A stretch of 64,000 nucleotides of DNA from an uncultured Candidatus Saccharibacteria bacterium. GTDB lineage: Bacteria; Patescibacteriota; Doudnabacteria; UBA920; O2-02-FULL-48-8. Shown here piece by piece: positions 4,438 to 35,343 of the stretch. The stretch spans positions 573,864-637,863 of the forward strand of contig CAZSDS010000001.1 of NCBI GenBank assembly GCA_964605735.1, written 5' to 3'. The notes beneath the pieces were generated by a model. It was not told the DNA's origin, made no database searches, and worked only from the letters and a program-made list of their open reading frames with translations. The first letter of the stretch is position 1, and each line of letters begins with the position of its first letter. The position numbers and the translations under genes were made by a program.

Positions 4438-4881
4438 TTATTTTCCGGATAATTCTTCTTTTGCGATTTTGGAAACCACAGAACCGTCAGTCTGGCCTTT
4501 TGCGCGCGCCAAAACTTCCTTCATGACTTTGCCAAAATCAGCCGTCGTCGCGTTGGTTTCCGAAACAACTGCGCGCACCAGTTCCCTGACCTGGTCTTCA
4601 CCCATCTGTTGCGGCAAGTATTTGACCAAAACAGCCATTTGCTTCTCTTCGTGCTCAACTAAATCTTGTCGGCCGCCGGATTTGAAGCTGTCGATTGAAT
4701 CCTTATGCTGTTTTACTTTTTTGGCGATGACCTTAAGAGCTTCTGCTTCATCAAGGGCGCTTCCCTTTTCTATCTCAGCGTTCTTGATTTCAGATTTGAT
4801 GCTGCGCAAAGCGCTCAGGCTGACTTCGTCCTTGGAGCGCATTGCGGTTTTAAAGTCTTCGTTTATTTGATCGAGTATCAT
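4438..4881 (-). CDS. yqeY: GatB/YqeY domain protein
   Basis: 147 aa. The N-terminus MILDQINEDFKTAMRSKD... matches the YqeY family. The rpsU-yqeY pairing is a conserved arrangement. Confidence 0.85.
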   Translation of the reverse strand: MILDQINEDFKTAMRSKDEVSLSALRSIKSEIKNAEIEKGSALDEAEALKVIAKKVKQHKDSIDSFKSGGRQDLVEHEEKQMAVLVKYLPQQMGEDQVRELVRAVVSETNATTADFGKVMKEVLARAKGQTDGSVVSKIAKEELSGK

Positions 4882-4890
4882 TGAGAAATG

Positions 4891-5133
4891 TTAGCGTCTC
4901 TTGAAACGTGACCCGAATGCCGGCAGTTTGCCGAGCTTCTTGAGTTCTTCTCGCTTTTCACGGTTAATGTTTCGTCTTAAAGCGTCTTCGCGCAAAAGAT
5001 TGCGTGATTTGCCAGGCTCATAGAACCTGATCTTTCTGGCACGAACCAAAACACCGCTCTGTTGGATTTTGCGGTTGAATCTGCGGAGCAAACTTTCAAA
5101 GGATTCTCCATCTTTCTTTTTCACTTCTACCAT
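4891..5133 (-). CDS. rpsU: 30S ribosomal protein S21
   Basis: MVEVKKKDGESFESLLRRFNRKIQQSGVL... matches S21. I trimmed the start to the internal ATG at 5133, which is preceded by agagaggtga (Shine-Dalgarno). The track ORF extends to 5187. Confidence 0.9.
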   Translation of the reverse strand: MVEVKKKDGESFESLLRRFNRKIQQSGVLVRARKIRFYEPGKSRNLLREDALRRNINREKREELKKLGKLPAFGSRFKRR

Positions 5134-27161: not shown

Positions 27162-27236
27162 TGGTGGGTGTGGAGCGGATCGAACGCTCGACCCTCTGCT
27201 TAAAAGGCAGGTGCTCTACCACTGAGCTACACACCC
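27162..27236 (-). tRNA. tRNA-Lys (anticodon UUU)
   Basis: Hand-folded: GGGTGTG acceptor, GCTC-AGTGGTA-GAGC D arm, CCTGC-CTTTTAA-GCAGA anticodon arm (one C.A mismatch at 27-43), GAGCG-TTCGATC-CGCTC T arm, encoded CCA. Confidence 0.88.
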
Positions 27237-27291: not shown

Positions 27292-27308
27292 GTCCGTGCA
27301 TGAGGATA

Positions 27309-27337
27309 TTGACAGGCAGACCATTGCGCTCTAGAAT
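27309..27337 (+). promoter_or_regulatory. Near-consensus sigma70 promoter (divergent from the tRNA-Lys promoter)
   Basis: TTGACA-N17-TAGAAT. It drives the 27366..27593 small ORF/transcript. Confidence 0.65.
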
Positions 27338-27365
27338 GTTGTTCGTGCATCAAGCAGGAGGAAGT

Positions 27366-27593
27366 GTGTCTGAATTCGAGCTTCGAGCCTGGAAAGTTCA
27401 TCCTCATAGCCAGTCATTTGATTGGGAGAAAACGCTCAGGGCCTACAGATCCAGCCTAGAGATCATCAGAACGGACGGCAACAGAGCTCTGGTCAAAGGC
27501 AGTGAAGCAGAGGTTAGGCGCCTCAACAAAATCAGCAAAGGCAGAATTCTTTTCTCGCCCGTCACGCCCCACCCCAGGGAAAAAGTCAAATAG
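27366..27593 (+). CDS. Small hypothetical protein (about 75 aa, GTG start), or alternatively the body of a roughly 300-nt sRNA
   Basis: Framed by a near-consensus promoter and an intrinsic terminator. AGGAGG lies 4 nt before the GTG. The frame matches track ORF 27300..27593, trimmed to be downstream of the promoter. I recognise no family. Confidence 0.4.
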   Translation: MSEFELRAWKVHPHSQSFDWEKTLRAYRSSLEIIRTDGNRALVKGSEAEVRRLNKISKGRILFSPVTPHPREKVK

Positions 27594-27611
27594 ATTTTCA
27601 GTCCCTCACCG

Positions 27612-27639
27612 AAAGTGTCTCTGACACTTTCTTTTTTAT
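27612..27639 (+). terminator. Rho-independent terminator
   Basis: Hairpin aaagtgtctctgacacttt followed by cttttttat. It overlaps the dnaJ stop codon on the opposite strand. Confidence 0.7.
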
Positions 27640-28787
27640 CCGGTAAATCTGCTCCAAAAACCTTCGTCCACTTCCACGGACTCACCTTTTTCTTCAGCCA
27701 GTTTTTTAAACAAATCTTTTTCTTTCTTTGTCAGCTTGGTTGGCGTGACCACACGCACCGTCACAAATTGGTCGCCGCGGCCCGAACTGTTGATGACAGG
27801 CACTCCCTTACCTTTTAACCTGAAAACTTTTCCTGACTGGGTTCCTGCTGGAATTTTCAGCTTTACTTCCCCATCAATAGTTTCCACGTCAACGGATGTC
27901 CCTAGTGCTGCCTGATAAAAACTCACTGGGATTTCGGAAAATATATTGGACCCTTCCCGTTTCAGAGTAGGATGAGGGGCAACGTTAAGCCGCAGATACA
28001 AATCCCCTGCCCCGGATCCGCGGTAACCAACTTCACCTTCACCGCTGACGCGCACGCGAGAACCATCATCAACGCCGGCAGGTATGTTCACCTTTAATGT
28101 CTTCATGCGGCGCAATTGGCCCGTGCCTCCGCAGGTCTTACAGGCAATTTCTGGAATTTTACCGGTGCCTGAACATTGATCACATGTAGTGACTGTGGCC
28201 ATGTTCCCCAAGATTGTCCGCCTTGTGGTCCGAATCTGACCTTGGCCATGACACTTTGGACAAGTAATAACCTTGCTGCCAGGTTCTGCTCCGCTTCCGG
28301 AACACACAGTACAGGCATCTTTCTTTTCAATCTTAATTTCCTTTTCTGCGCCGAATACCGCTTCCTGAAAAGTCAGATCAATCTCTATTTCCAAATCAAT
28401 GCCGCGGGTCCTGCTCTGCCTGCGGCCGCCGCCAAAAATATCAGAAAAAATATCATAGGCATCCTCAAAGCCGCCAGCTGATGCGCCGCTAAATCCAAAG
28501 CCTTGCGCAAAATCGCCGAAATCAAAGCCTTCAAAACCGCCAAAACCAGAGCCGCCTGCTCCGCCTCCAGGCATATTCTGGTAAGCTGAGCCAAACCGGT
28601 CATATCTGGCCCGCTTATCCGGATCTGACAGCACTTGGTATGCTTCGTTTATCTGCTTGAATTTCTCAGCATTGCCATTGCCTTTGTCAGGATGGTGCTC
28701 ATGAGCCAAACGCCGGTAGGCTTTTTTGATTTCCTCCGGCGTTGCGGTTTTTGATACCCCTAATGTTTGATAAAAATCCTGTGCCAT
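27636..28787 (-). CDS. dnaJ: Chaperone DnaJ (Hsp40)
   Basis: 383 aa. It has a J-domain with HPD, a Gly/Phe-rich linker, four CxxCxGxG zinc-finger repeats and a C-terminal substrate-binding domain. Confidence 0.95.
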
Positions 28788-28788
28788 T

Positions 28789-29763
28789 TTAGATTGCTAA
28801 TTTCTCAACCTCCACTGTTTCCTTTTCTATCCTGATAAAACCGGCTATTCTTAATACTTTAAATATCGCCCAGCTTAAGAGTAATACAACCCAATTAAAG
28901 ACAAAAGCAAAGGTGCGCATCAGTGCCAGAACCAGGACCGTGAAGAACAACGGGAAAAAATCCTCATACCTCCCCAAGCCTTCCCGCAGTCTTTGCGTCG
29001 CGACCTCGGTTAGAGCCACTCTCAGAGTGACATTGTCGTCCGCGTCCACGCCGAACTGCTCTGCAAAATTCTGCCTGATCTGGTCAAGGAGCTCTCTTTG
29101 CTGGCTGGCGGAAACCTGATTGAATTCCGGATACTGCTGTTCAGCCTGCTTTCTGAAGAATTCGCTCATTCGTTGACTGAGATTGTATTGGGAGCGGTCT
29201 TGCGCCAGCAGTGGGACGCCGCTCACTGCCGTCTCGCCCAATTTTCTGTAGTACTGATCGCGGTCGCGGTTAAAGTCTTCGCTGACACTGGAATAAACCA
29301 CGAATCCCAACAGAATCAAGAACGCATATGTGATGATTATCTGGCTGTTGCCAAGCGTTCGCCTGATGGAAAAGTTCAACTGGTTCGTTTCCTCCCCCTG
29401 CACGCGTCCCTGGAAAAACAAATTTAACAGGAAGAATATTACCCCGCCGATAAAAACGTAAATGTCCCTCGGCATGATCACTAAATATGTAATCAGCCCG
29501 ATGGCGTTGAAGATGAAAAAGGTGAATTTATCCGGCCTGGTTAAGGCAAAGATGCTGACCACCGCCACCCAGACTGCAGAAACCCCGGCGGTGTAAGCCC
29601 AGAAACTGGGATGCCTGCCGCCGAACATGGATTCGCTCAACATCCACCAGTTTAAAACCAGCAGAGCAGAAGACAACAACCCCAAACTAATTTGCTTGAA
29701 ATGCTTTCTGGCTTCAGATCTGTTCGCCTGCGCCTGCCTAATGCTCTCGCCGATTTGTTCCAT
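28789..29763 (-). CDS. Hypothetical polytopic membrane protein inserted between dnaK and dnaJ
   Basis: About 324 aa from the internal ATG at 29763. The track ORF to 29874 would overlap the upstream gene by 95 nt, so the start is ambiguous. It has at least four TM helices and a Q-rich soluble segment. I recognise no family. Confidence 0.5.
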
Positions 29764-29779
29764 ATTTGTTTTATGAAGG

Positions 29780-30085
29780 TTAAGATTGGGTTTTAAAGCC
29801 GAAGTCCGATTTTGACTGCGACTCACCTTCATTAATTGTACCAAATTGTTGCTCGTAGCGGCCGAGATTTTCATTCAGTGCCGCCAGGATGCGCTTGAAG
29901 TGCCCTGGACTGACAATCACCCTTGAGCCAACAATCCCCTGCTGGCCCACAACGTTCATGAAGTCAAAAATGAACTCTTCTTTGGTATGTATGACCTGCA
30001 TCAGGTTTGAATAGAAACCTTGAAGCTTGTCATCATTAATCTTGATTTGGATCTGCTGGCCCTGGTTTGGTGGTTGTTGTGACAT
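29780..30085 (-). CDS. DUF3467-like small protein
   Basis: 101 aa. FYSNLMQVIHTKEEFIFDFMNV...SRVIVSPGHFKRILAALNENLGRYE matches the DUF3467 pattern as I recall it (ysNl..i.hs..EF.lDF...sRii.sP.haKrll.aL.eNi..YE). Confidence 0.55.
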   Translation of the reverse strand: MSQQPPNQGQQIQIKINDDKLQGFYSNLMQVIHTKEEFIFDFMNVVGQQGIVGSRVIVSPGHFKRILAALNENLGRYEQQFGTINEGESQSKSDFGFKTQS

Positions 30086-30107
30086 GTATGTTCAGCCTTT
30101 TTGTTAA

Positions 30108-31985
30108 TTACTCTTTTTTATTTTTTTCTGTGAATTCGGCATCAACAGGTCCGTCTTCTTTGTTTCCTGAACTGGAGTTGCCGGACTTGTCAGCGCCTGG
30201 TTGTGGATTTGATGACTGGTTTTGTTGATACATGGCCGCTCCCACTTTCTGTACAGCATTAGAGAGCTCATCCATTGCTTTCTTGATTGCCTCGACATCA
30301 TCCTTATCCTTAACTTCCTTCAGGGCTGTAATCTTGTCTTCCACCGCTTTCTTGTCATCCGCATTAGCCTTATCTCCCGCATCTTTCAGGGTGCGTTCAG
30401 AAACAGAAATCATGGTATCTGCCTGGTTGCGCATTTCAATGGTCTCCTTGCGCTTGCGGTCCTCCTCAGCATGAGCCTCCGCTTCCTTCTTCATGCGCTC
30501 AATTTCATCTTTGGAAAGGTTTGAAGAACCGGTAATGGTAATGTCTTGAGATTTTCCGGTTGCCTTGTCTTTGGCCGTTACCTTCAAAATACCGCTGGCA
30601 TCAATGTCAAAAGTCACTTCAACTTGCGGTACGCCACGCGGGGCTGGCGGAATGCCATCCAAATGAAATCTTCCCAGAGACTTGTTGTCATGAACCATCG
30701 GACGCTCGCCCTGGACTACGTGAATTTCCACGGAAGTCTGGTTGTCAGCGGCGGTTGAGAACACCTGAGACCTGGAGGTGGGAATTGTGGTGTTGCGTTC
30801 AATCAACGGAGTTGCCACTCCGCCCAAAGTCTCCAATCCAAGCGTCAAAGGGGTAACGTCCAAAAGCAGAATATCCTTCCCTGCGGCATCCCCGGACAAA
30901 ACTCCGGCCTGCACTGCAGCGCCCTTAGCCACGGCTTCCATAGGGTCAATGCCGCGCTCCACCTGCTTGCCAACATAATTTTCCACGAATTTCTGGACTA
31001 CAGGCATGCGGGTCGGACCGCCAATCAAAATAATCCGGTCAATGTCCTGGGGTGTCAGTTTGGCGTCGTTGAGGGCCTGTTCAACCGGGTGTTTCATCCG
31101 ATCTATGATAGGTTTGACCAATTCCTCAAGCTTGGCTCGGGTCAATTTCAGCTCTAAAGTTTTGGAACCGCCGGCTGGATCCGGAGCAATAAACGGCAAG
31201 ATAATGTCGGTTTCGAAAACTGTTGAAAGTTCAATTTTAGCCTTCTCAACTGCTTCGCGGACGCGGTTCATTGCCATTGGATCTGAAGCCAGATCAATTC
31301 CGGTCTTTGATTTGAAATCAGCAATAACGTAATCAATCAAAGCCTGGTCCATGTCTTTGCCGCCCAGCTGTGTGTCGCCTGAAGTTGCCTTAACTTCGAA
31401 TGTCGCCTTACCTCCCTCTTCCGCAAACTCCATGATAGTCACATCCAGCGTTCCGCCGCCTAGGTCGAACACCAAAATCTTCTGTTCCTTGCCGGCCTTA
31501 TCCAAACCGTAGGCGAAAGCCGCAGCTGTTGGCTCGTTGATTACGCGAACCACTTCCAAGCCTGCAATTTCTCCTGCGTTTTTAGTGGCCAAACGCTGAG
31601 AGTCATCAAAATATGCCGGCACGGTAATGACAGCCTTAGTCACGGGTTCGCCGATAAAAGCCTCTGCGTCCTTTTTAATTTTCTGCAGGATGAAAGCTGA
31701 AATCTGTTCTGGGCTGTATTCCTTACCATTGAGTTTAAACCTATGGTTTGTGCCCATTTTCCTTTTTGCTTCGAACACTGTCCCATCCGGATTTGTCACG
31801 GCCTGGCGCCTGGCAGGCTCACCAACCAGCAACTGCCCCTCTTTTGTAAATGCAACGTATGACGGGAACGCTTTACCGGCTACGGTCATACCTTCCGCAG
31901 AAGGGATTATAACCGGCTTGCCGCCTTCCATCACTGACGCTGCCGAGTTGGAAGTACCCAAATCAATTCCGATAATTTTTGGCAT
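30108..31985 (-). CDS. dnaK: Chaperone DnaK (Hsp70)
   Basis: 625 aa. [18 protein letters not shown] and the other Hsp70 signatures are present, along with an acidic C-terminal tail. Confidence 0.97.
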
Positions 31986-32043
31986 AACTATTTCCTTTAG
32001 TGCTTAATACTGATAAAATTAACCCAACCAATAAGGAGGTGCG

Positions 32044-32235
32044 ATGCGCAAATCGTTTGCTAAAATCGCCAAGTTCCTTTTTCTGTTTGTAAGTGCAGTA
32101 GCTGTTTTGTTTTTGCTCGTGATCTCCCCTTGCTACCGCCTGCTGAATGCGTACCTTACGCGGAAGCTGCGCAGGAGCCAGGCCAACCAACGACCAATAA
32201 ACCAAGTAGTCGCAAGCTCGCCTCGCCGCCCGTGA
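32044..32235 (+). CDS. Small hydrophobic/basic protein (63 aa) transcribed divergently from dnaK inside the heat-shock locus
   Basis: AAGGAGG lies 5 nt before the ATG. An extended -10 (TGaTAAAAT) is upstream. The stop codon sits inside an intrinsic terminator hairpin. The N-terminus is a TM helix and the C-terminus is Arg/Lys-rich. Confidence 0.45.
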   Translation: MRKSFAKIAKFLFLFVSAVAVLFLLVISPCYRLLNAYLTRKLRRSQANQRPINQVVASSPRRP

Positions 32236-32271
32236 AATTTACTGATGCGTTTTTCACGGGCTTTTTGTTTT
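32229..32271 (+). terminator. Rho-independent terminator (plus strand) between the sORF and the hsp20 3' end
   Basis: Hairpin cccgtgaaatttactgatgcgtttttcacggg followed by ctttttgtttt. Confidence 0.65.
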
Positions 32272-32686
32272 ATCCCTTAACCTCAATTTCAACTTTGCGA
32301 GGCTTGACCTTTTCGCTTTTTGGCATGGTAACCTTCAGAACGCCGCGTTCACAAACGGCTGAGATTCCTTCAGCGTCAACTTCCGTAGGAAGGGCAATGC
32401 TTCGGGCGAAACTTCCACGTCTGACTTCCTTGCGGTAGTAATCGCGGTTCTTGTCTTCAGTCACCTGCTCATCCCCGCCTTTGATGTGCAACACATTGTT
32501 CTCAATTTCCACGTTTATTTTCTTTGGATCAAGACCTGGAATGCTAATCTCAGCAACGACCTCATTATCAGTTTCATAAAGGTCGACTTCGGGTGACTGC
32601 ATTCGGCCGACTATCGGCATGAAGAAATCATCTTCAAAAAATCTGTCGAGTTCCCTGAAAGGGGTAAACCTAACTAAATTTGCCAT
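32270..32686 (-). CDS. Small heat shock protein (Hsp20/alpha-crystallin family)
   Basis: 138 aa with an alpha-crystallin domain (DLYETDNEVVAEISIPGLDPKKINVEIENNVLHIKG...GVLKVTMPK). Confidence 0.9.
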   Translation of the reverse strand: MANLVRFTPFRELDRFFEDDFFMPIVGRMQSPEVDLYETDNEVVAEISIPGLDPKKINVEIENNVLHIKGGDEQVTEDKNRDYYRKEVRRGSFARSIALPTEVDAEGISAVCERGVLKVTMPKSEKVKPRKVEIEVKG

Positions 32687-32742
32687 AGGTAATTCTCCTT
32701 AATTAATTATTCAAATTGCTTTGACTTTGCTGGCTAAGTGGG

Positions 32743-33294
32743 TCAGCCAACAATTTTATTTTTCCTGGCAACCACTACTTTTGCTGGGATGATGACCCTG
32801 CCATTGAGCGTAAAGCCCGGCTGAATCTCCTTAACAATCCCCTCACCGTCAGACTCCTCTTCCTGTACTGCCTCATGGAGATCAGGGTTGAATTTCTCGC
32901 CGACCGTTTTGATTTTGGCCAGGCCCAGCTCTTCCATTGTTTTCTCCAACTGAATTATTGTGGCCTTCAGGCCCAACAGCCAGTCCTTGTACTTGTCGTC
33001 ATTGGGCGCGTACTTTAAAACCTGCTCCAGGCTCTGCAACGAAGGCATTAACTTCATCACTGTCATTTCCTTGCTGTACTCAAGCAGCTCCCTGCTTTCC
33101 GTCTCTTTGCGGCGTTTGAAATTTTCAAAATCTGCGGCCGCCCGTTTCCAGTTGTTCAAATATTCTTCGTTCTCAGCCCTCAACTTATCCAGTTCACTCC
33201 GCAATTTGCCCTCTGTTTGCTCGCTTGCTTCATCGCCGTTTGAAACGGGACCGTCGTTTTGCGTCATTTCATCTTGCATATCTTCGTTAGACAT
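32743..33294 (-). CDS. grpE: Nucleotide exchange factor GrpE
   Basis: 183 aa. It has a coiled-coil N-terminus and the GrpE motif NWKRAAADFENFKRR. Confidence 0.9.
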   Translation of the reverse strand: MSNEDMQDEMTQNDGPVSNGDEASEQTEGKLRSELDKLRAENEEYLNNWKRAAADFENFKRRKETESRELLEYSKEMTVMKLMPSLQSLEQVLKYAPNDDKYKDWLLGLKATIIQLEKTMEELGLAKIKTVGEKFNPDLHEAVQEEESDGEGIVKEIQPGFTLNGRVIIPAKVVVARKNKIVG

Positions 33295-34030
33295 AAACCA
33301 CCATAATCAGAACAGCGGAACCGGAAATCAGTTTAGACAAAAACTCAAGAATAGACATATTTTTGGCATATGACATCCTCTTTGGCCCAACAATCCCAAT
33401 CAGCCCTTTCTTGCCGTTCTTTAACTTAATTTTAGAAACCATCAAACTCATGTTTTTGGGCATAGGCACCGGCACTTCAGTCCCTATGAATGTTTCTGTT
33501 TTGTACTCGGCATGCTTCATGAGCTTGTCGGCATGCTGGTCAATCTGGTCAAAAAGCTCTGCCACGCCCTGGATAGTCCTTGAATCGGACAAGTCAGGCT
33601 CAGTAATGATCCTGGAAAGTCCGGCGGCTGATGTGTCATGGGGCAGGAGCGTGAAAGCGGCTTGGCCTGAAACCTCGGCCACCAATTTTGAAATAGATCG
33701 GCCCAATTGCTCATGGGCAGCCTGCAATTTGACCAATTCCGCACGGAGCATTTTGCGCTCGCGCTCTGAAAGCTCAAACCTCTGCATCAGCTCATTAACG
33801 AAGAACCTGTAGCCTTTGTCTGTCGGCACCCTGCCCGCAGATTTGTGCGGCTGGGAGATATAACCCTTCTTTTCCAGAACAGCCATTTCATTTCTTATGG
33901 TTGCAGGGCTGACGCTGAGGTTATATTTTTCCACCAATTCTTGCGACCCAACAGGCTGTGCCGCTTCTGAGTATTCCTTAACGATAGCAGCCAGTATTTT
34001 CTGCTGTCTTATGTTTATTTCTCTTTCCAT
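33287..34030 (-). CDS. hrcA: Heat-inducible transcription repressor HrcA
   Basis: 247 aa. Its N-terminal winged HTH (RQQKILAAIVKEY...PVGSQEL...SPATIRNEMAVLEKKGYISQPH) is typical of HrcA. It overlaps grpE by 8 nt. Confidence 0.9.
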   Translation of the reverse strand: MEREINIRQQKILAAIVKEYSEAAQPVGSQELVEKYNLSVSPATIRNEMAVLEKKGYISQPHKSAGRVPTDKGYRFFVNELMQRFELSERERKMLRAELVKLQAAHEQLGRSISKLVAEVSGQAAFTLLPHDTSAAGLSRIITEPDLSDSRTIQGVAELFDQIDQHADKLMKHAEYKTETFIGTEVPVPMPKNMSLMVSKIKLKNGKKGLIGIVGPKRMSYAKNMSILEFLSKLISGSAVLIMVVYV

Positions 34031-34092
34031 TAGAGTTATACCTCATGCCCTCTGGGGCCATTATCTAACGCTAAATCCATTAGTTGCTTTAT

Positions 34093-34119
34093 TTAGCACT
34101 CGCTTCTTAAGAGTGCTAA
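34093..34119. promoter_or_regulatory. CIRCE operator 1 (TTAGCACTC-N9-GAGTGCTAA), a perfect consensus
   Basis: ttagcactcgcttcttaagagtgctaa lies just downstream of the predicted hrcA -10. Confidence 0.9.
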
Positions 34120-34138
34120 TCGCCTAATAATAATAAAT

Positions 34139-34165
34139 TTAGCACTCAACGTTGTCAAGTGCTAA
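34139..34165. promoter_or_regulatory. CIRCE operator 2 (TTAGCACTC-N9-aAGTGCTAA), with one mismatch
   Basis: ttagcactcaacgttgtcaagtgctaa. The embedded TTGACA on the minus strand is the likely hrcA -35 (TTGACA-N17-TATTAT). Confidence 0.8.
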
Positions 34166-34175
34166 AAGCAACAGA

Positions 34176-34207
34176 AAATAAAAAAACCGCAGGGGTGTTC
34201 CTGCGGC
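34176..34207 (-). terminator. Rho-independent terminator after the NUDIX gene
   Basis: On the minus strand, hairpin ccgcaggaacacccctgcgg followed by ttttttt. Confidence 0.7.
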
Positions 34208-34211
34208 GCAA

Positions 34212-34622
34212 TCAGTCCGAAAACATGCGGTTGCTTTGGATGGCTTGGAGGAGCTTCCGGTGCCCGAAAAAAAGCGGCTGTGGCAGATTTTCAAAGGAGA
34301 ACCACCCCCAGCCAGAAAAGCTGTCAGGTTCGGTCAGCTTGGGGTCTTTGTCCGTATTCGCAAAGAACGTCACCTGTATGTAATGTTCATTGCACTCTTG
34401 GCGCGGATCATTCGTAAGGTTTACGAAGACCAGATCCACAAGCTCAATCCCCGTCTCCTCACGCACTTCCCTGATGGCGCCTGAAACCAGGGATTCAAAA
34501 GCGTCAAGCTTGCCCCCGGGCAGGCACCATTCCCCCTGTCCAACACCTCCTTTCCTTTGACCAAAAAGGACTCTGCCGTTCTTGCGCACGACGACGTTGA
34601 CGCCGATTTTTGGTGCACTCAT
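34212..34622 (-). CDS. NUDIX hydrolase
   Basis: 136 aa with the Nudix box GKLDAFESLVSGAIREVREETGIE. Confidence 0.88.
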   Translation of the reverse strand: MSAPKIGVNVVVRKNGRVLFGQRKGGVGQGEWCLPGGKLDAFESLVSGAIREVREETGIELVDLVFVNLTNDPRQECNEHYIQVTFFANTDKDPKLTEPDSFSGWGWFSFENLPQPLFFGHRKLLQAIQSNRMFSD

Positions 34623-34803: not shown

Positions 34804-35343
34804 ATGAAAATATCAAACCATCTCCCGCATTTCAGCGAACCCAACCTGCTGGTCGTTGCGGGAAAACAAGAAGCGGCTTTTTTCAAAGCCAGAAACGACC
34901 AAATACACCAGGTATATCATTTTAAAGTCGAAAAACCGGAGTACTCTGACAACGAGAGCAGAAGAGAAAGGAGAGGAAGTGGCGGCGCTTCAAGGTTCGG
35001 AGGGGGCTCGCCCTTTAAGCACAATGAAAACGAACTTTTGAGAGGCTTCTTAAAACAGCTAACAGACGAGGTCATTGCGCTTGATACAAGAAAAGAGGTC
35101 GACAAGCTGTACCTATTCTGCCCGACATACTTATCCAGCCCAATCGAGGACAACCTCCCGAATGACATACGGAACAAGATTGAATTTATTTTTTTCGGGA
35201 ATTACCTTAACCAACATCCGTTTGTTCTGTTGTCAAAGATCCAGGAATTTCAGAGAATAGAAAAAGACAAAAAAATCGTTGAACCTATAAAACTTGAGGC
35301 TCTTGAAATTTTAAAAAAGACCGGATCTGGGTTGAGTGCATAG
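34804..35343 (+). CDS. Hypothetical protein, possibly host-attachment/baeRF (eRF1-like) family
   Basis: 179 aa. The N-terminal LLVVAGKQEAAFFKA resembles the wVlvaDg.rARlf start of Host_attach-type proteins. This assignment is tentative. Confidence 0.35.
   Translation: MKISNHLPHFSEPNLLVVAGKQEAAFFKARNDQIHQVYHFKVEKPEYSDNESRRERRGSGGASRFGGGSPFKHNENELLRGFLKQLTDEVIALDTRKEVDKLYLFCPTYLSSPIEDNLPNDIRNKIEFIFFGNYLNQHPFVLLSKIQEFQRIEKDKKIVEPIKLEALEILKKTGSGLSA

Follow-up and report, generated by a model that had tools for sequence, protein, structure and literature searches.

The bacterial Hsp70 system is commonly described as consisting of DnaK, DnaJ, and GrpE, and lineage-specific cofactors of it, such as DafA and CbpM, are few. 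In Bacillus subtilis, the genes are ordered hrcA-grpE-dnaK-dnaJ, with hrcA first and a controlling inverted repeat of chaperone expression (CIRCE) overlapping a sigma-70-type promoter, and in the Lactococcus lactis dnaK operon, 2 CIRCE elements overlap the promoter (PMC1676014). We analyzed a window of 64 kilobases (kb) of Candidatus Doudnabacteria-type DNA, to whose positions all coordinates refer, and identified in it a chaperone locus of the class I heat-shock (HrcA/CIRCE) type, carried by a Candidatus Doudnabacteria-type genome of the Patescibacteria, or Candidate Phyla Radiation (CPR). The locus keeps the B. subtilis order, with hrcA first and CIRCE overlapping a sigma-70-type promoter. 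In contrast to the Firmicutes operon, it carries hsp20, a DUF3467 gene, and a membrane-protein gene inside the operon, its HrcA is approximately 90 residues shorter (247 vs. 338 amino acids, aa), and a small opposite-strand gene lies between hsp20 and dnaK. The 2 genes between dnaK and dnaJ, DUF3467 and the membrane-protein gene (hereafter the extras), are conserved across the lineage as members of the dnaK operon in Patescibacteria and are not recent insertions.

The list of open reading frames (ORFs) and the family scans gave 7 genes, all on the minus strand, here in the order of transcription:

33287..34030, minus strand: hrcA, 247 aa (TIGR00331, 198.7 bits against a cut-off of 197.2; PF01628, E 2e-17; PF03444)
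32743..33294, minus strand: grpE, nucleotide exchange factor (PF01025, E 1e-38)
32270..32686, minus strand: hsp20, small heat-shock protein (PF00011, E 6e-23)
30108..31985, minus strand: dnaK, Hsp70 (NF001413, 869 bits)
29780..30085, minus strand: DUF3467 gene, 101 aa (PF11950, 80.9 bits against a cut-off of 25)
28789..29763, minus strand: membrane-protein gene, 324 aa, polytopic, with no Pfam or NCBIfam match
27636..28787, minus strand: dnaJ, type I, with J domain, zinc-finger domain, and C-terminal domain (TIGR02349, 425.7 bits)

Known chaperone or HrcA families were matched by 5 of these genes, and DUF3467 was assigned by PF11950. The original prediction, made from the letters of the window, had read the same 7 genes across this span, and the family scans bore out their identities, including a DUF3467-like protein of 101 aa and a polytopic protein of approximately 324 aa that belongs to no recognized family. 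With grpE, dnaK, and dnaJ downstream of HrcA/CIRCE on the same strand, the locus has the makeup of a class I operon. hrcA and grpE overlap by 8 nucleotides (nt), and the intergenic distances that follow are 56, 284, 22, 16, and 1 nt in order. On this spacing, hrcA-grpE-hsp20 would form a first tight block, and dnaK-DUF3467-membrane-dnaJ, with the gaps of 22, 16, and 1 nt, a second and very tight one. Because these gaps are short and no terminator-like site was found between the genes from dnaK to dnaJ, the 4 genes of the second block are likely co-transcribed, and the membrane gene and dnaJ are probably coupled in translation as well.

The promoter region ahead of hrcA contains the following elements:

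34139..34165, minus strand: upstream CIRCE (CIRCE-1), TTAGCACTTGACAACGTTGAGTGCTAA, 1 mismatch, holding the -35 hexamer TTGACA (34158-34153)
34130..34135, minus strand: -10 hexamer TATTAT, with a spacer of 17 nt from TTGACA, sitting between both CIRCE elements
34093..34119, minus strand: downstream CIRCE (CIRCE-2), TTAGCACTCTTAAGAAGCGAGTGCTAA, perfect, covering the expected transcription start region

Both elements follow the CIRCE consensus, TTAGCACTC-N9-GAGTGCTAA, and they are the only 2 matches (0 and 1 mismatch) in the 64-kb window, against 0.02 expected by chance. The TTGACA-N17-TATTAT promoter agrees with the consensus at 11 of 12 positions, as a consensus match only, and the single mismatch of CIRCE-1 (C to T) is the source of its TTGACA hexamer. 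The perfect CIRCE lies 10 nt downstream of the -10 hexamer and 62 nt upstream of the hrcA start codon. One perfect and one singly mismatched CIRCE together with this promoter are what the original prediction had described. It had also placed the -35 inside the second CIRCE, with the promoter sandwiched between the two; the -35 does lie within a CIRCE, but within the upstream, imperfect one, which comes first in transcription, and the operators do not just flank the promoter and the transcription start region but overlap both. In the proposed mechanism, HrcA, which the first gene encodes, would repress its own sigma-70-type promoter through both operators, one of which contains the -35 and the other of which covers the transcription start region. 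By the known mechanism of HrcA, occupancy of both sites would block binding of RNA polymerase and initiation, and heat or a load of unfolded protein would lift the repression. Because it is already described for L. lactis, the dual operator is not new.

The dual-CIRCE promoter with TTGACA inside CIRCE-1 was invariant in 6 Doudnabacteria genomes, and an aligned -10-like hexamer directly behind CIRCE-1 was present in 6 of 6, with CIRCE-2 approximately 20 nt further on. A CIRCE also lay upstream of hrcA in most of the DUF3467 loci of relatives, and other CPR lineages mostly had a single one. The relatives' loci that we compared with the window are labeled L and a number. In L093, the closest relative at NCBI, the downstream CIRCE and the ribosome-binding site of hrcA overlap (1895-1970; …ATAAATAAGGAGTGCTAGAAATATG).

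The HrcA proteins themselves are short in several CPR genomes, with 227-248 aa in the window, L001, L003, L087, L091, and L093 vs. 338 aa for Thermotoga maritima HrcA 1STZ and for the TIGR00331 model. Only the N-terminal winged helix aligned to T. maritima HrcA 1STZ (E 1e-21), and the C-terminal HrcA model of Pfam was left with approximately 76 unmatched positions. These short HrcA proteins seem to lack part of the usual C-terminal region.

To place the layout among relatives, the DUF3467 alignment was scanned against one genome per species (185,579 species), which gave 440 relatives. Synteny was counted by tblastn with the window's proteins in the best 80 of these 440, which are species-representative, and the denominators are the informative loci (62 with enough sequence upstream and 63 downstream). 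By record name, the best 80 loci were mostly Patescibacteria/CPR, including Doudna-, Morani-, Kuenen-, Kerfeld-, and Buchananbacteria and Parcubacteria, and 1 was Candidatus Polarisedimenticolia; many third-party annotation (TPA) records labeled as uncultured Gammaproteobacteria or Bdellovibrionales were taken as probable mislabels. The nearest relatives of the membrane protein also carry the label Candidatus Doudnabacteria.

Of 62 informative loci, 49 had dnaK upstream of DUF3467 on the same strand; dnaJ was downstream of it in 43 of 63, and an hsp20 separated grpE from dnaK in 24 of 46. Every Doudnabacteria relative examined had the order dnaK-DUF3467-membrane-dnaJ, as did distant CPR lineages, and the placement of DUF3467 between dnaK and dnaJ was kept in CPR groups with at least 7 different candidate-phylum names. 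The layout hrcA-grpE-(hsp20)-dnaK-DUF3467-(X)-dnaJ is the standard one in Patescibacteria. The extras were thus conserved in place, and not absent or displaced in all relatives, the outcome that the original prediction had named as fatal to it. What did not hold up was its view of the arrangement as unusual, since an hsp20 between grpE and dnaK was seen in approximately half of the loci counted and a DUF3467 gene between dnaK and dnaJ is what Patescibacteria normally have.

Between the 2 blocks, the 284-nt gap harbors 2 further features:

32044..32235, plus strand: small ORF, 63 aa, with one hydrophobic/transmembrane helix and a perfect AAGGAGGTG ribosome-binding site ahead, divergent from dnaK
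32228..32261, no strand assigned: 10-base-pair (bp) hairpin between hsp20 and the small ORF, with a U-run behind it on the plus strand only

The original prediction had called the operon complete and on one strand. All 7 genes are indeed on the minus strand, but the plus-strand ORF interrupts the hsp20-dnaK gap, and the cluster is therefore not strictly one-stranded. L093 has a homologous ORF at the same site (47% identity over 36 aa; its C-terminal part could be detected as well), and similar ORFs occupy this site in L001 and L067, sharing a hydrophobic core and an SPxRP-like C-terminus, although BLASTP between the window and L001 versions gave no match. The hairpin (-17.7 and -16.8 kcal/mol; z -3.7 and -3.9) is conserved in L093 too. 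Judged by the position of its U-run, it would terminate the small plus-strand ORF and would not be a canonical terminator for the minus-strand operon. Because it has no U-run in the direction of the operon, read-through from the hrcA promoter is plausible, and HrcA control of dnaK-dnaJ would most likely be exerted by such read-through across the gap. The original prediction had argued that co-transcription with dnaK and dnaJ would make the extras heat-shock-regulated; co-transcription with these genes is likely, but control by HrcA needs the read-through, which we infer.

Small genes occur at other points of the operon in relatives. Two small opposite-strand ORFs lie between dnaK and DUF3467 in L003 instead, and the distant CPR operon L091/L092 contains 2 extra small genes that are unannotated, one of 118 aa between hsp20 and dnaK (L091 2008-2364) and one that follows DUF3467, precedes the membrane gene, and encodes 83 aa (4735-4986). 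The operon seems to accept or accumulate small inserts. A remnant of hsp20 was not found in the long grpE-dnaK gap of L093.

The membrane protein belongs to a much wider family than it first seemed. Its start at 29763 (MEQIG...) was set by its homologs, all of which start there, and in a word-indexed search, the family appeared limited to 26 Doudnabacteria-like sequences. Between DUF3467 and dnaJ, many other CPR loci have ORFs of 300-400 aa that contain 6-7 hydrophobic segments, and the family hidden Markov model (HMM) recognizes these ORFs. An exhaustive profile search gave 583 clusters (50% identity) at E <= 1e-3, with 146 of these at E <= 1e-10. With the broader HMM, all 31 family ORFs in the examined loci were on the operon strand (31/31), and none was elsewhere in a locus. 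The dnaJ start could be located downstream for 25 of the 31, at a gap of 2-347 nt, and for 15 of these 25 within 21 nt. This adjacency to dnaJ was kept down to 11-20% identity: in context look-ups from 5 distant members (11-19% identity to the window protein), 4 adjoined dnaJ (L087, L088, L090, and L091/L092). Of these, L087 has the order hrcA-grpE-dnaK-membrane-dnaJ, without DUF3467, and L091/L092 has hrcA-grpE-hsp20-x-dnaK-DUF3467-x-membrane-dnaJ, x being an extra small gene. On the short contigs L088 and L090, the next ORF opens with a J-domain N-terminus, and on the short contig L089, Ku is downstream.

Pfam gave no match for the window membrane protein nor for 10 + 35 family members, NCBIfam gave none for the window protein, and profile searches of the PDB with narrow (A2) and broad (A3) alignments returned chance-level matches only. 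The membrane protein has no J domain (PF00226), which resides on the separate downstream DnaJ. An AlphaFold model of the protein (predicted local distance difference test, pLDDT, 82; predicted template modeling score, pTM, 0.71) showed 5 transmembrane helices, a helical domain of approximately 110 aa (158-268), a long C-terminal hydrophobic helix, and a disordered conserved tail. The protein is predicted to have 6 transmembrane (TM) helices with both termini cytoplasmic and an outward-facing helical domain of approximately 110 aa between TM5 and TM6. The most conserved motifs across the wide family are RxRxE...FS after TM4, in the TM4-TM5 loop, and the C-terminal K..EVE..L tail, both of which are on the K/R-rich side and presumably cytoplasmic. 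The C-termini of the membrane protein and of DnaJ both carry a VEVE/VEVD-like acidic motif, possibly by coincidence.

The DUF3467 protein matched PF11950 above the gathering threshold, with residues 4-85 aligned to profile positions 7-91 of 92, and no other Pfam family matched it at E <= 0.01. Its structure model has a three-strand-plus-helix core and is monomeric with termini of low confidence; the protein is probably oligomeric. No sequence similarity to solved structures was found. The motifs QIQIK at the N-terminus and GF at the C-terminus are invariant, and identity between CPR and Acidobacteriota members is approximately 50%; such identity across phyla therefore indicates strong constraint on DUF3467. 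In Porphyromonas gingivalis, a DUF3467 protein rose 5-fold upon chlorhexidine stress, as listed in a proteomics table that also includes GroES (PMC11986949).

Several side observations concern DUF3467 genes away from the operon. In Acidobacteriota (L084 8001-8315; L085; L086 5001-5303), the gene is divergent from an Nramp transporter gene, and no chaperone gene lies within 5-8 kb; by eye, no CIRCE was seen in the 160 nt upstream of the stand-alone gene of L084. L027 and L074 are contigs of one CPR assembly (CAYTIK01), and this genome has 2 DUF3467 copies. One copy is downstream of dnaK, and around the other, no chaperone gene lies within 8 kb. In Moraniibacteriota, tblastn gave DnaK-like matches of 23-25% downstream of DUF3467 that suggested a second Hsp70; judged by eye, this gene looks like mreB. 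The ORF behind the match in L012 opens with the actin-family ATP-binding motif IGIDLGTANT and is followed by 2 further ORFs.

Among described partners of the Hsp70 system, DafA is also encoded within a dnaK operon, CbpM is a protein of approximately 100 aa encoded beside a J-protein gene, and DjlA of Escherichia coli is a single-pass, membrane-anchored J-domain protein that tethers the DnaK system to the inner membrane. DafA, a DnaK-DnaJ assembly factor of Thermus thermophilus, is small and confined to its lineage; it forms a DnaK3-DnaJ3-DafA3 complex, from which substrate displaces it (PMC3727329). CbpM, likewise small and a MerR-type relative, binds the J domain of CbpA, a DnaJ homolog in gamma-proteobacteria, and inhibits its co-chaperone activity (PMC4063869). 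Both offer precedents for small accessory factors of DnaK/DnaJ. DUF3467 is comparable to DafA in its operon position, but it is widespread (CPR, Acidobacteriota, and Bacteroidota) and highly conserved, whereas DafA is confined to Thermus. With PF11950 as its only match and with a three-strand-plus-helix fold, it showed no match to a MerR-related family of the CbpM type. The membrane protein differs from DjlA in that it has no J domain and is polytopic, with 6 helices, and it would have to recruit the adjacent DnaJ.

We consider it rather probable that the locus is an HrcA/CIRCE operon in which the 2 extras serve as accessory factors of the DnaK-DnaJ machine. Both would be co-expressed with DnaK and DnaJ and would act with them. 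The cytoplasmic TM4-TM5 loop and the C-terminal tail of the membrane protein could be a docking or client-delivery site for DnaJ/DnaK, and DUF3467 could act as a soluble adaptor or modulator whose role, though not its sequence, would resemble that of DafA or CbpM. A fuller form of this explanation, which we put forward tentatively, makes the extras true components of the DnaK machine: the membrane protein would be a platform docking DnaJ and/or DnaK, DUF3467 would be the adaptor, and together they would provide a route for membrane-protein quality control or client delivery in reduced-genome, surface-attached bacteria, with DUF3467 acting as an Hsp70 cofactor in Acidobacteriota and Bacteroidota as well, where it is unlinked. 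The original prediction had proposed membrane-associated proteostasis factors, which is a reasonable hypothesis, but what links either extra to DnaK/DnaJ is gene neighborhood only, and this is one of several points that weigh against an accessory role. Further, no CIRCE stands ahead of dnaK (neither a full nor a half CIRCE was found upstream of dnaK or DUF3467 in the window, at <=3 mismatches or by eye), and a conserved opposite-strand gene occupies the gap, so the second block, from dnaK onward, may be transcribed from a separate promoter that does not depend on HrcA. Some Moraniibacteriota loci have DUF3467 several kb away from dnaK or without any chaperone gene in its flanks, and no CIRCE was found upstream of DUF3467 in the CPR loci where it is detached from dnaK. 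In Acidobacteriota, it stands alone, far from any chaperone gene and beside the Nramp transporter, which makes its link to dnaK lineage-specific. A separate CIRCE with 1 mismatch lies between the membrane gene and dnaJ in 3 non-Doudnabacteria CPR loci (L017 9279-9305, L027 10577-10603, and L064 10094-10120), directly upstream of dnaJ, and dnaJ can therefore be HrcA-controlled apart from the membrane gene. Lastly, the modeled fold of the membrane protein points, weakly, to the S-components of energy-coupling factor (ECF) transporters, which are not chaperone-related.

Much of this could be accommodated if the extras were unrelated to chaperones and had merely hitch-hiked, compact CPR genomes stringing unrelated genes co-directionally and the arrangement then being inherited. 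The stand-alone acidobacterial DUF3467, its detachment from dnaK in several CPR loci, the extra small genes of varying identity inserted at several operon points in relatives, and the separate CIRCE ahead of dnaJ in some lineages are all as expected from such a history. However, the adjacency of the membrane family to dnaJ survives at 11-20% identity with gaps of a few nucleotides, DUF3467 holds the dnaK-to-dnaJ position under at least 7 candidate-phylum names, and neutral synteny is not normally kept at such depth; because the synteny is so deep and tight, pure hitch-hiking becomes less likely, and we regard it as rather doubtful. The fold of the membrane protein raises the thought that it binds or transports a vitamin or cofactor in the manner of an ECF S-component with an added extracellular domain, its adjacency to dnaJ reflecting co-expression, not partnership. 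Sequence searches of Pfam, NCBIfam, and the PDB placed it in no known S-component family, and Foldseek of the model against the PDB did not confirm the likeness, with nothing significant and a best E of 0.56. The protein also departs from S-components in its extra domain of approximately 110 aa between TM5 and TM6, in conserved motifs that lie on the cytoplasmic loop and tail instead of in a binding pocket, and in its genomic partner, which is dnaJ and not ecfT or ecfA; no ecf genes were noticed among the called neighbors at the loci examined, where no search aimed at EcfT or EcfA was made. A transport role would leave the strict pairing with dnaJ unexplained, and we judge it unlikely. As for DUF3467, its three-strand-plus-helix core could be taken for a nucleic-acid-binding fold of the PC4/Whirly/Pur-alpha kind that acts on heat-shock mRNA or DNA rather than on DnaK/DnaJ. 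Yet COMM domains, which are protein-protein dimerization modules, score equally well or better against the model, the protein resembles no solved structure in sequence, and the model is a monomer with low-confidence termini, which leaves a nucleic-acid role improbable.

A heat-shock operon, CIRCE, and dual operators are textbook matter, whereas it appears to be unreported that DUF3467 and an unnamed membrane family are present lineage-wide in the dnaK operon. Literature searches, whose scope excluded most subscription journals, returned no paper linking DUF3467/PF11950 or a CPR heat-shock operon to this arrangement. Two uncharacterized families are tied here to dnaK/dnaJ by deep and tight synteny across a radiation that holds a large share of bacterial diversity. 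An interaction with DnaK or DnaJ would make them new Hsp70 cofactors, give a function to a widespread DUF, and offer a view of membrane proteostasis in minimal genomes; if the link is only positional, the locus is the ordinary heat-shock operon of an uncultured bacterium.

The cluster is bordered on both sides by further hairpins and genes:

27611..27631, no strand assigned: hairpin, 9 bp, right after the dnaJ stop codon, with a T-run on the plus strand only
34186..34207, minus strand: terminator-like hairpin and T-run, with an 8-bp stem of 6 GC pairs and then TTTTTTATTT, ending the upstream NUDIX gene
34212..34622, minus strand: NUDIX gene (PF00293, E 3e-23)

The hairpin behind dnaJ likely marks the end of the cluster and would be shared with a convergent plus-strand ORF (27300-27593, 97 aa or shorter) that has no family match. 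This ORF has a TTGACA-N17-TAGAAT promoter-like site (27309-27337, plus strand), and its hairpin/T-run terminator abuts the dnaJ stop. A tRNA-Lys(ttt) gene follows further downstream of dnaJ (27162-27236, minus strand). On the other side, the hairpin behind the NUDIX gene would insulate the hrcA promoter. Beyond the NUDIX gene, an ORF of 179 aa (34804-35343, plus strand) is divergent from the NUDIX/hrcA side and shows weak, sub-threshold matches to the eRF1-like baeRF families 10 and 12 and to Host_attach.

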